Positions 46,691 to 48,620 of a DNA stretch of 52,688 nt are shown here, piece after piece. The notes beneath the pieces were generated by a model that saw only the letters and a list, made by a program, of their open reading frames with translations, searched no databases and was not told where the DNA came from. The stretch lies in IMG/VR virus record IMGVR_UViG_2531839667_000013; one strand, given 5' to 3'. Made by a program: the position numbers and the translations under genes. Position 1 is the stretch's first letter. The number at the start of each line of letters is the position of its first letter. This DNA is from a virus (Duplodnaviria; Heunggongvirae; Uroviricota; Caudoviricetes).

Positions 46691-48004
46691 TCATTGTAAA
46701 AAAACATATGAAAAATGTACTGGGTTTTGTCGAGATGCATTATAAACAATGCTCTTTTCACTATTCAAATCATCTAAAACAAACTGACTGGGATGTTTTA
46801 CTGTAGGAGTAGCACATTGAACAAAATAAGCAGGTTTGATCCTTTTAGTATGTCCTTTTTCCCAGCAACTGGCAGAACCATGGTGAGGAATCTGAAACAA
46901 TCCACAATTCATCCATCGAGCAGTTCCCAGATGGGACTCAAAATCATCTAGAACAGGAGTTGTCAGATTAATATCCCCTGTAAATATCAAACCAGAAGAA
47001 TGAATATTGTAGCTTTCCTTACATTTACCCAAGATGAAATGGAAGCCATGTGGGGTAATTTTAGGTGAAGCATACATACACAAAGAAATATTGTTTTGAG
47101 CTTTATTGGTGCTACCAAAATGTTTCTGGTAGCAAGCCTTTAACTTCTCCCGCCACTTTACATCAATACTGGAGTTAATACCACAGTGTAGGTTTATACT
47201 CTCAATTGTTTGCTGGATATCTTTCTTAGCATCAGCAAGTTTAAAATGAGACTTGATGGCATAAAATTCCTCATCTTTCTCATATACAAGATTGAGTTTT
47301 TTAAATGACTTTTCGGCATTATAAAATACAAACTCAAATATACCATCGAGCACACTAACAGGCTGCATATGGTTAATTGTTGACAATTTTATTCCACTAC
47401 TATTGATTGGCATACCTAAATCAAAAAAAACATTATCCTTAGCATCATTTATATGTCTTTCTTGTTCTATATCTTTTAACTCATCTAAGTTATCTCTTAG
47501 TATTAAAGGCTCATCAGAATTTTTTGGGAAAATCTCGGGAGTTATCAACTTATCAGGATTTTTTGGGCCGCCATTGCCTTGTACTAATATTATTTTCTCC
47601 ACCCGATTTGATAGATCGTTATTATATAACCATAGTGCTGGATTTAACTGAAAAAGTGCTACAGAAGGTGATATCCCATGGGATCCACCTATAGATATTT
47701 CTCTAATAGCCTGAGTCCAATCACTATAAGGAAGCACCAATCTTTTTATTGTGTGCTTCCTTAATAGAGTAATCAACCCATTAACATGGTCATCATCAAA
47801 ATGAGAAATGACCATCATGTCTATACTATCATTTTTGTTAAACTCCATATGAGATGAGTCAATTATGTTATTTATGGCTTTTTCGCTGGTAGAACCACAG
47901 TCATAACCCCAGTTGAATTCATTGCCATCTTTTCTCCGAATTTTTGAAGTGAAAAAAGTGCCATTTCCGACGGCGTGAAAACACCCTGACAGCTCGTTGA
48001 ACAT
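46691..48004 (-). CDS. MBL-fold metallo-hydrolase (ComEC-type beta-lactamase-like domain), 437 aa
   Basis: Metal-binding-like motif VISHFDDDHVNGL near the N-terminus and FQIPHHGSASCW near the C-terminus (PHHGS is typical of ComEC-like MBL domains); AAGGGGA RBS; AT-rich. Confidence 0.55.
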   Translation of the reverse strand: MFNELSGCFHAVGNGTFFTSKIRRKDGNEFNWGYDCGSTSEKAINNIIDSSHMEFNKNDSIDMMVISHFDDDHVNGLITLLRKHTIKRLVLPYSDWTQAIREISIGGSHGISPSVALFQLNPALWLYNNDLSNRVEKIILVQGNGGPKNPDKLITPEIFPKNSDEPLILRDNLDELKDIEQERHINDAKDNVFFDLGMPINSSGIKLSTINHMQPVSVLDGIFEFVFYNAEKSFKKLNLVYEKDEEFYAIKSHFKLADAKKDIQQTIESINLHCGINSSIDVKWREKLKACYQKHFGSTNKAQNNISLCMYASPKITPHGFHFILGKCKESYNIHSSGLIFTGDINLTTPVLDDFESHLGTARWMNCGLFQIPHHGSASCWEKGHTKRIKPAYFVQCATPTVKHPSQFVLDDLNSEKSIVYNASRQNPVHFSYVFLQ

Positions 48005-48215
48005 TATCTCATCCCCTTAAGTGTAAATCCCTGCACCAATACGTCATTACAATAAAATATCATTACCATCATTTGTTTCAACATACATTGTGGTTTTGAG
48101 AACTGATTAATATCTACTGATATTTGTAATATCTACTTCTGACACAGACCTGTCTGTCAAATTATGTTTAGCTCTGTGCCGTAACAGTCTCTGCTTAAAC
48201 TTGAGAGAATACAGC

Positions 48216-48620
48216 TTAGATAGTAAAATCTTCAAGTGTCTTACCAGCTTCGATAGCAGCAGCGATCGCTTTAGGAGTGCGACCCTGACCCGTCCAAGTC
48301 TGCTCATTACCGTTTTCATCTGTATATTTGTATTTAGCTGGACGAGGAGCGCGGGTCGATTTGGCTTTAGGCTGAGATGAGCCAACAGCAGCAAGAAGTT
48401 CTGCCGGATCAATACCATCTTCTAACAGTTTCTGACGGAAGGCTTCCAGCTTAGCCTGACGTTCTTCTTGTTCTTTACGGGCTGAATTTTCTTCCTCACG
48501 GCGATCTTCAACAACAGCAGAGAGTTTTTCCAGCATCTCTTCCAGAGTTGCCAGATCTGTTTCACGAGCCTGTGCGCGAAGTGTACGAATATTGTTCAGT
48601 GCCTTAAGAGCTTCACTCAT
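48216..48620 (-). CDS. H-NS family nucleoid protein paralog (Hfp-like)
   Basis: [20 protein letters not shown]...[20 protein letters not shown]...[23 protein letters not shown]; full-length H-NS architecture including the [12 protein letters not shown]-binding motif. Confidence 0.85.

Follow-up and report, generated by a model that had tools for sequence, protein, structure and literature searches.

Does a gene that sits beside an H-NS paralog on a genomic island belong with that paralog, or does it travel and act alone? The question is raised by a 52,688-nucleotide stretch of viral DNA (Caudoviricetes; IMG/VR record IMGVR_UViG_2531839667_000013; hereafter “the window”), in which a protein of the metallo-beta-lactamase (MBL) fold is encoded directly downstream of a full-length H-NS paralog. 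The initial annotation, made from the sequence alone, had proposed the pair as a candidate undescribed module. We find that the MBL gene lies on a cassette of its own, and we give a probability of roughly 55% to the reading that it is a self-contained mobile cargo gene whose product is a stand-alone probable DNase, used in conflict with phages or mobile DNA. Three features are needed at the outset:

46691..48004, minus strand: MBL gene, coding for a 437-residue protein of the MBL fold and ComEC type that stands alone and is putatively a Mn/Zn-dependent DNase (open reading frame call)
48216..48620, minus strand: gene for Hfp/H-NSB, a 134-residue full-length H-NS paralog of the serU-island backbone (Pfam, NCBIfam, CFT073 homology and PMC7074111)
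46607..48130, no strand assigned: mobile single-gene cassette, reaching from 84 bp downstream to 126 bp upstream of the MBL gene

Both genes agree with their first description. Hfp is encoded 211 bp upstream of the MBL gene on the same strand and is full length, since both Pfam domains of H-NS match (Histone_HNS_N at 9e-25 and Histone_HNS at 8e-17; the NCBIfam H-NS model gives 1e-52). The surrounding DNA is AT-rich (about 35% GC), as had been supposed, and collinear with the serU island of CFT073. The MBL open reading frame (ORF) is a real gene rather than a chance ORF, because it is under purifying selection (dN/dS of 0.15-0.20 against copies of 79-85% identity) and because an assembly collection has the identical protein in 123 blocks; the six places listed for that protein (of the 123 blocks) all have the serU-island arrangement.

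The protein and its named relatives

Three parts of the MBL protein bear on its activity:

47786..47803, minus strand: HFDDDH, residues 68-73 (ligands H68, D70, D72 and H73), MBL motif II (translation)
46874..46888, minus strand: PHHGS, residues 373-377 (H374 and S377), ComEC motif V (translation)
47390..47578, minus strand: disordered, acidic, proline-rich loop, residues 143-205, a candidate gate (model and homologs)

Both motifs had been recognized at the start. PHHGS, then called C-terminal, does fall within the last sixth of the protein but not at its end, and HFDDDH, then taken for a variant metal-binding motif, corresponds to the HxDxDH form of active ComEC nucleases. The crystal-structure study of ComEC (PMC12455585) gives the nuclease motif as H598-x-D600-x-D602-H603. 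It reports that mutation of H598, D602, H603 or D700 nearly abolishes the Mn-dependent DNase, that the rate falls about 5-fold in D600A and about 3-fold in S728A, and that H725A was also tested; H725 and S728 are assigned to DNA binding. Residues H68, D70, D72, H73, D344, H374 and S377 of the MBL protein align to ComEC H598, D600, D602, H603, D700, H725 and S728. D344 is part of a TGD motif, and a further shared motif is NNISL (residues 303-307, with N304 and S307), the equivalent of NNNSL in ComEC. In an alignment of 39 homologs H68, D70, D72, H73, D344, H374 and H375 are invariant, so the metal-binding residues are conserved as the initial annotation would have expected, and S377 is at least 90% conserved. 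Because HFDDDH is the normal ComEC motif and the equivalent residues are conserved, the active site looks complete and of the binuclear-metal type.

The AlphaFold2 model (pLDDT 81.7, pTM 0.87) has the alpha-beta/beta-alpha MBL fold and is nearest to the ComEC nuclease domain. When a profile of the 39 homologs was compared with the PDB, the significant matches were ComEC chains only (E = 3.7e-9), and hhalign gave a probability of 94.7% against E. coli YcaI over the region from TGD to PHHGS. Profile and structure searches, the first check proposed initially, thus place the protein in the ComEC/Pce branch of the fold with ComEC as its nearest relative. The sequence shows no evident signal peptide or membrane segment, and the N-terminus forms a core beta-strand in the model; the MBL protein is a cytoplasmic stand-alone member of that branch. 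A metal-dependent DNase is its most likely activity, to judge from the shared catalytic and DNA-contacting residues.

The protein differs from ComEC/Rec2 (compared as the Moorella glycerini BLACT domain, PDB 9ic4, and E. coli YcaI) in several respects. It has neither the channel (competence) domain nor the OB-fold domain, and matches are confined to the MBL domain: with the ComEC model TIGR00361 it reaches 23.1 bits where 190 are required, over residues 60-93 only. ComEC is a core competence gene, whereas the MBL gene is mobile-element cargo. From motif II to the TGD aspartate there are 271 residues in the MBL protein compared with about 100 in ComEC, so that about 170 residues are inserted between motifs II and IV; a smaller insertion precedes PHHGS. 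The large insertion contains conserved structured elements (F227, N229, Y292 and F296) as well as the loop, for which pLDDT falls below 50 at residues 173-186. Loop length varies from 22 to 75 residues, and the loop is net acidic in 39 of 39 homologs (median charge -7), the rest of the protein being neutral to basic.

Several immune nucleases share this ancestry. HamM, Avs1a, CanC and VcMBL are ComEC-like and are DNases once activated (PMC12799240, bioRxiv 10.1101/2025.09.03.673762, PMC12642450). HamM (Hachiman-MBL), Avs1a (AVAST type 1) and CanC (caspase-nuclease) are protease-gated, are separate genes in defense loci, and have insertions relative to ComEC that control activity. The window protein has an insertion too, of about twice their length and with conserved structured elements and the acidic loop. 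The PADLOC and NCBIfam models of these three match it weakly around motif II: Avs1a (NF041809) gives 22 bits, its cut-off being 420, and the PADLOC matches (Avs1a, LmuA, RTasMBL and PDC-M48B) cover residues ~26-91 only, with residues 337-413 added for one PDC-M48B model. Partial-match MBL proteins from our searches (P0060-P0120) were considered as Avs1a/HamM-type enzymes and rejected, as they fail those models too.

A further relative is 6A-MBL, which pairs an E2/E1/JAB protein (cap2_3) with an MBL enzyme (NF058523, NF058524) and is listed as a defense against jumbo phages (bioRxiv 10.1101/2025.09.30.679545). Its MBL and the window protein are both ComEC-like, and distant family members adjoin complete 6A-MBL pairs (see below). 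The window protein is not the 6A-MBL enzyme, scoring 22.2 bits with NF058524 against a cut-off of 220, and its locus has no E2/E1/JAB (cap2_3) gene and no patatin gene.

None of the curated Pfam, NCBIfam, PADLOC and PHROGs models reaches its cut-off. The protein stands outside every named family, since library matches are sub-threshold and at the level of motifs, and the early impression that it belonged to no recognized system held up for the Pfam, NCBIfam and PADLOC models. On sequence comparison the MBL protein is a structural relative of the ComEC-derived immune nucleases, outside the ComEC, Avs1a/HamM-type and 6A-MBL families. Its own family is large: an exhaustive hidden Markov model search returned 2,829 clusters (50% identity) at E<=1e-30, and the best 150 of the 2,829 are about 400-450 residues long, almost all with full-length matches. 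No description of a stand-alone ComEC-like defense gene was found in the literature searched, coverage of which was incomplete. We would describe what is new as a ComEC-type MBL family that stands alone, lacks a partner and has an insertion of its own; the theme of ComEC-derived immune nucleases is already known.

A single-gene cassette in a variable slot

Other features of the island are needed to define the position of the gene:

46060..46347, plus strand: H-NST, a 95-residue ORF, truncated H-NS antagonist, the other flank of the slot (Histone_HNS_N only; PMC7074111)
46351..46677, plus strand: 108-residue ORF, truncated remnant of a 129-residue hypothetical gene, its 3' end entering the cassette
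48054..48081, minus strand: promoter-like site, TTGAAA, a 16-nt spacer and TG-TATTTT (consensus match only)

Window positions 43701-46337 and 48216-52023 are 97% and 94% identical, respectively, to the serU island of CFT073, and GC content is 0.35-0.40 over 46-49 kb compared with 0.52-0.62 in the adjoining prophage. In CFT073 the order is tRNA-Ser, DUF6387, AlpA-like, two hypothetical genes, H-NST, DUF6404, H-NS, DUF4756, a hypothetical gene and RepL. The label “serU island” holds by homology. Hfp/H-NSB and H-NST are known backbone genes of this island (PMC7074111); in the window, H-NST matches the Histone_HNS_N domain alone (1e-11, Pfam) and is collinear with an 80-residue CFT073 gene.

Homology to CFT073 breaks at 46337/46338 and 48215/48216, resuming exactly at the Hfp stop codon (48216), so that 1,878 bp (46338-48215) stand in place of 532 bp with DUF6404. 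A third variant of the island, in about 220 genomes, has three other hypothetical genes at the same place. At least three different contents of the slot occur in E. coli: DUF6404; hypothetical proteins of 129, 305 and 167 residues; and the 108-residue ORF with the MBL cassette (coordinates compared: window 46338-48215, L001 9339-9870 and L103 4011-6898). Because three alternative contents occur between H-NST and Hfp, this interval of the serU island is a cargo-exchange slot.

The cassette itself was delimited by comparison with copies in the vat island of E. coli (L002-L004), to which 46607-48130 aligns at 85.7% identity over 1,527 columns, with nothing beyond (blastn). Such related DNA is present in three of 5,426 complete E. 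coli genomes (87% identity), besides the window lineage, and the three copies lie beside a small integrase, a DUF4145 protein and a GIY-YIG protein. Of the same 5,426 genomes, 707 match the island stretch, with a maximum coverage of 56% of the 4.3-kb query; the MBL segment is covered in none of the 707. The cassette does not include all of the exchanged DNA. Of positions 46338-46700, the first 265 nt match 220 E. coli genomes in which the gene is 129 residues long. The 108-residue ORF has no family match in Pfam, NCBIfam or PHROGs and was rejected as a partner of the MBL gene, as it is a truncated remnant outside the shared cassette.

The promoter-like site lies in the cassette's own upstream DNA, and between it and the ATG there is a Shine-Dalgarno sequence, AAGGGGA. 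Expression of the MBL gene, like that of any island gene, may be affected if H-NS-family proteins silence this 35% GC DNA.

Gene neighborhoods, proposed role and alternatives

About 60 contexts of family members were examined. BLAST clustering of 687 neighboring ORFs at 55 loci from different species gave no conserved neighbor; the conserved gene neighborhood looked for since the initial annotation is not there. What recurs is the kind of place in which the genes are found. Relatives of 47-85% identity in Pantoea, Erwinia and Serratia lie in other islands or in prophages, without H-NS, and the following positions were seen:

L018, L019, L037, L039, L040 and L052: within type I restriction-modification (R-M) operons, either immediately behind hsdR or between hsdS and hsdM
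L012 (Raoultella) and L013 (Enterobacter): after an AAA_13 / PDC-S06 gene
L026 (Escherichia sp.): beside a 2,112-residue DEAD-MZB (Druantia-like) helicase and a UvrD-like protein
L017 (Acinetobacter): beside a Roc-LRR-TIR protein
L107 (Serratia): in a GmrSD / MmeI / DEAD / T5orf172 island with an integrase at its end
L091 (Pantoea stewartii): near McrBC and a helicase-PLD protein, in an island with DUF932, antirestriction, RadC and CbeA genes
L011, L108 and L105: cargo positions in or adjoining prophages, namely at P2 GpU/tail-fiber genes, at tail-tip/tail-spike genes, and upstream of RusA and an antiterminator

The most telling context is that of 6A-MBL. A 6A-MBL system and a patatin gene lie immediately beside a family member in Pseudomonas (L098-L101, 8001-13971) and in Sediminibacterium, of the Bacteroidota (L030, 6541-12511). 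The 6A-MBL enzyme was identified with NF058524 (6e-122 in Pseudomonas and 2e-105 in Sediminibacterium); the E2/E1/JAB gene was identified with NF058523 in Pseudomonas (4e-186) and by Pfam and BLAST in Sediminibacterium, where the family gene starts 18 bp past it on the same strand. Four genes thus recur together in two phyla: the 6A-MBL enzyme, E2/E1/JAB cap2_3, patatin and the MBL of the window family. The E2/E1/JAB and patatin neighbors were also considered as type II CBASS, a reading that was rejected since NCBIfam identifies the gene at the CD-NTase position as that of the 6A-MBL enzyme. Patatin genes abut family members in L034 and L075 as well. In the latter (Edaphocola, 7683-11110) genes for patatin, a 332-residue ComEC-like MBL and a 372-residue family MBL run head to tail, overlapping by 11 nt at one junction and separated by 7 nt at the other, and look like a three-gene operon with two different MBLs.

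The R-M positions invite comparison with PrrC, an anticodon nuclease that serves as a back-up effector embedded in a type I R-M operon. The likeness, seen in the six loci listed above, would be one of gene position; PrrC has a different fold, and the window locus has no R-M operon. In the 55 loci no neighbor had both trypsin signatures and none had the subtilisin signature (caspases were screened by a loose motif), which sets the family apart from HamM, Avs1a and CanC. A lone GDSG match among the neighbors proved to be a ROK-family kinase and not a protease.

Defense genes dominate the family contexts, in a tally of the examined loci that is not set against a background. Because the family lives in defense islands and in cargo positions of prophages and islands, a role in conflict is proposed. 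The MBL cassette would have replaced resident cargo between H-NST and Hfp in the variable serU-island slot, and its product would degrade DNA in conflict with phages or other mobile DNA. The initial suggestion of nucleic-acid degradation in exclusion or defense fits the gene contexts. More speculatively, the insertion of about 170 residues and the acidic disordered loop might restrain the enzyme until a trigger arrives, by analogy with the gating of HamM, Avs1a and CanC, whose partner protease is absent at the window locus.

Five points weigh against this account. Both the substrate and the defense role are argued from homology and from association with neighboring genes. In fold, the phosphorylcholine esterase Pce comes almost as near as ComEC does, and the substrate may therefore be a phosphodiester other than a nucleic acid. 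Some contexts, among them those in Leminorella and Acinetobacter pittii, have no obvious defense neighbors. No terminator-like site is predicted between the Hfp gene and the MBL gene, and transcription may therefore read through from hfp. Finally, two independent juxtapositions with an H-NS gene among about 14 Enterobacterales contexts exceed a naive estimate of chance.

A bolder form of the proposal is that the MBL gene represents an unrecognized, widespread single-gene anti-phage or anti-plasmid DNase, auto-inhibited by a DNA-mimicking acidic loop and the insertion and released by a phage cue or a general protease; elsewhere it would serve as an extra effector beside 6A-MBL/patatin or type I R-M. 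We think this form less likely than not, and regard the MBL gene as a candidate single-gene defense.

It is unlikely that the gene is instead an addiction or toxin-type stabilization gene of islands, that is, a selfish nuclease that kills the cell when it is lost or activated. Being solitary, putatively a nuclease and carried on islands, the product would suit such a role. In Pantoea the 85%-identical MBL gene (L091, 7344-9320) comes directly after the CbeA antitoxin gene, where CbtA is expected (as in L104), and another element has a copy within a yfjS/yfjT...cbeA/cbtA block. The 55 loci, however, have no conserved small neighboring ORF that could be an antitoxin, and many copies are chromosomal, inside R-M operons or defense islands and not beside maintenance genes.

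We consider it distinctly unlikely that the product is an MBL phosphodiesterase of counter-defense or signaling which, like Apyc1, destroys cyclic-nucleotide immune signals, protecting mobile elements or regulating signaling systems. A phage-borne counter-defense role is disfavored because no family member was found in 50,697 phage genomes, the plasmid collection gave one full-length match, and the BFVD viral structures contained two weak relatives only.

The module proposed at first, in which Hfp and the MBL gene would function as a pair, with the H-NS paralog for example silencing or controlling a toxic nuclease, now appears very improbable. Its appeal lies in the shared strand, the 211-bp spacing without a predicted terminator, and the second juxtaposition, in Rahnella ecdela (L014, 9974-14058). 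There a 42%-identical MBL gene is followed about 660 bp later by a same-strand gene for a 68%-identical Hfp-like protein and then by a truncated hsdR; this gene order is the reverse of the window's. An H-NS gene is adjacent in the window lineage and in R. ecdela only among the contexts examined: copies in the vat island and in Pantoea, Erwinia, Serratia, Acinetobacter and Pseudomonas have no H-NS neighbor. The cassette boundary at 48130 excludes hfp, and the 707 genomes that match the island do so without the MBL gene. In addition, hfp carries a 2-bp insertion with a frameshift near codon 22 in CP148541.1 (L005, 9383-9789) and, in L006 (9397-9789), a 12-nt deletion that keeps the frame and falls within the C-terminal DNA-binding domain; both genomes encode the identical MBL protein, and sequencing error is possible for either change. 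In our reading, insertion took place twice, in the window lineage and in L014, each time into an AT-rich island with H-NS paralogs, and the juxtaposition is not a module. Least probable of all is an ordinary metabolic or housekeeping hydrolase or competence DNA-uptake factor that is in the island by chance: NCBI labels some copies “ComEC/Rec2 family competence protein” and a few contexts look metabolic, but the protein has none of the competence domains (TIGR00361, 23 bits) and its distribution, in three of the complete E. coli genomes and the window lineage, is patchy and borne by mobile elements.

Surroundings of the island and implications

The start of the island is marked by one further feature:

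43701..43762, plus strand: 3' 62 nt of tRNA-Ser (serU), a copy of the attachment site (comparison with CFT073 tRNA-Ser)

ARAGORN called no intact tRNA-Ser in the window and no tRNA at 43701-43762. Only the 3' fragment is present, directly after a prophage that is integrated at the same site and so parts the island from the true, intact serU. The prophage part contains genes for tRNA-Met (CAT) and tRNA-Arg (TCT), about 100 bp apart, at 10816-11068. Its end (38062-43256) has a tail fiber gene (38062-39381) and then a cluster of type III effectors: NleB/SseK (39829-40809), a 96-residue fragment of an NleC-type Peptidase_M85 (40843-41133) and, with weak matches, an OspG/NleH-like kinase (41527-42231) and an NleF-like protein (42417-42986).

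On the other side of Hfp the island backbone continues with DUF4756 (48778-49257; phrog_38784, 1e-104), a 243-residue protein (49433-50164; phrog_20483, 7e-102) and a RepL-like protein (50249-50830), and the PHROG matches over 48778-50830 suggest a phage- or satellite-like origin of the backbone. An ORF for a 340-residue DUF4238 protein starts in the last 144 nt of the window (52545-52688) and extends beyond. Past the window end (L005-L010, 1-5300) there follow a DUF4755 protein and a 494-residue reverse transcriptase adjoining a MobA/MobL relaxase; the same end of the island in CFT073 instead has TcpC, another TIR-domain protein, a macro-domain protein and a ComEA-family protein. Because DUF4238 is the domain of a reported defense system, the arm of the island past the window end may carry further defense cargo.

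Should the protein prove to be a self-gated DNase with a defensive role of its own, a compact single-gene effector would be added to the ComEC-derived immune nucleases, and a nuclease would be controlled without the partner protease of Hachiman-MBL, AVAST type 1 and caspase-nuclease (Canu) loci. On that view, the repeated occurrence of family members next to 6A-MBL/patatin and within type I R-M operons would suggest effectors that act in layers or as back-up. The neighboring H-NS gene belongs to the backbone of the island, and recognizing it as such guards against reading adjacency as function.

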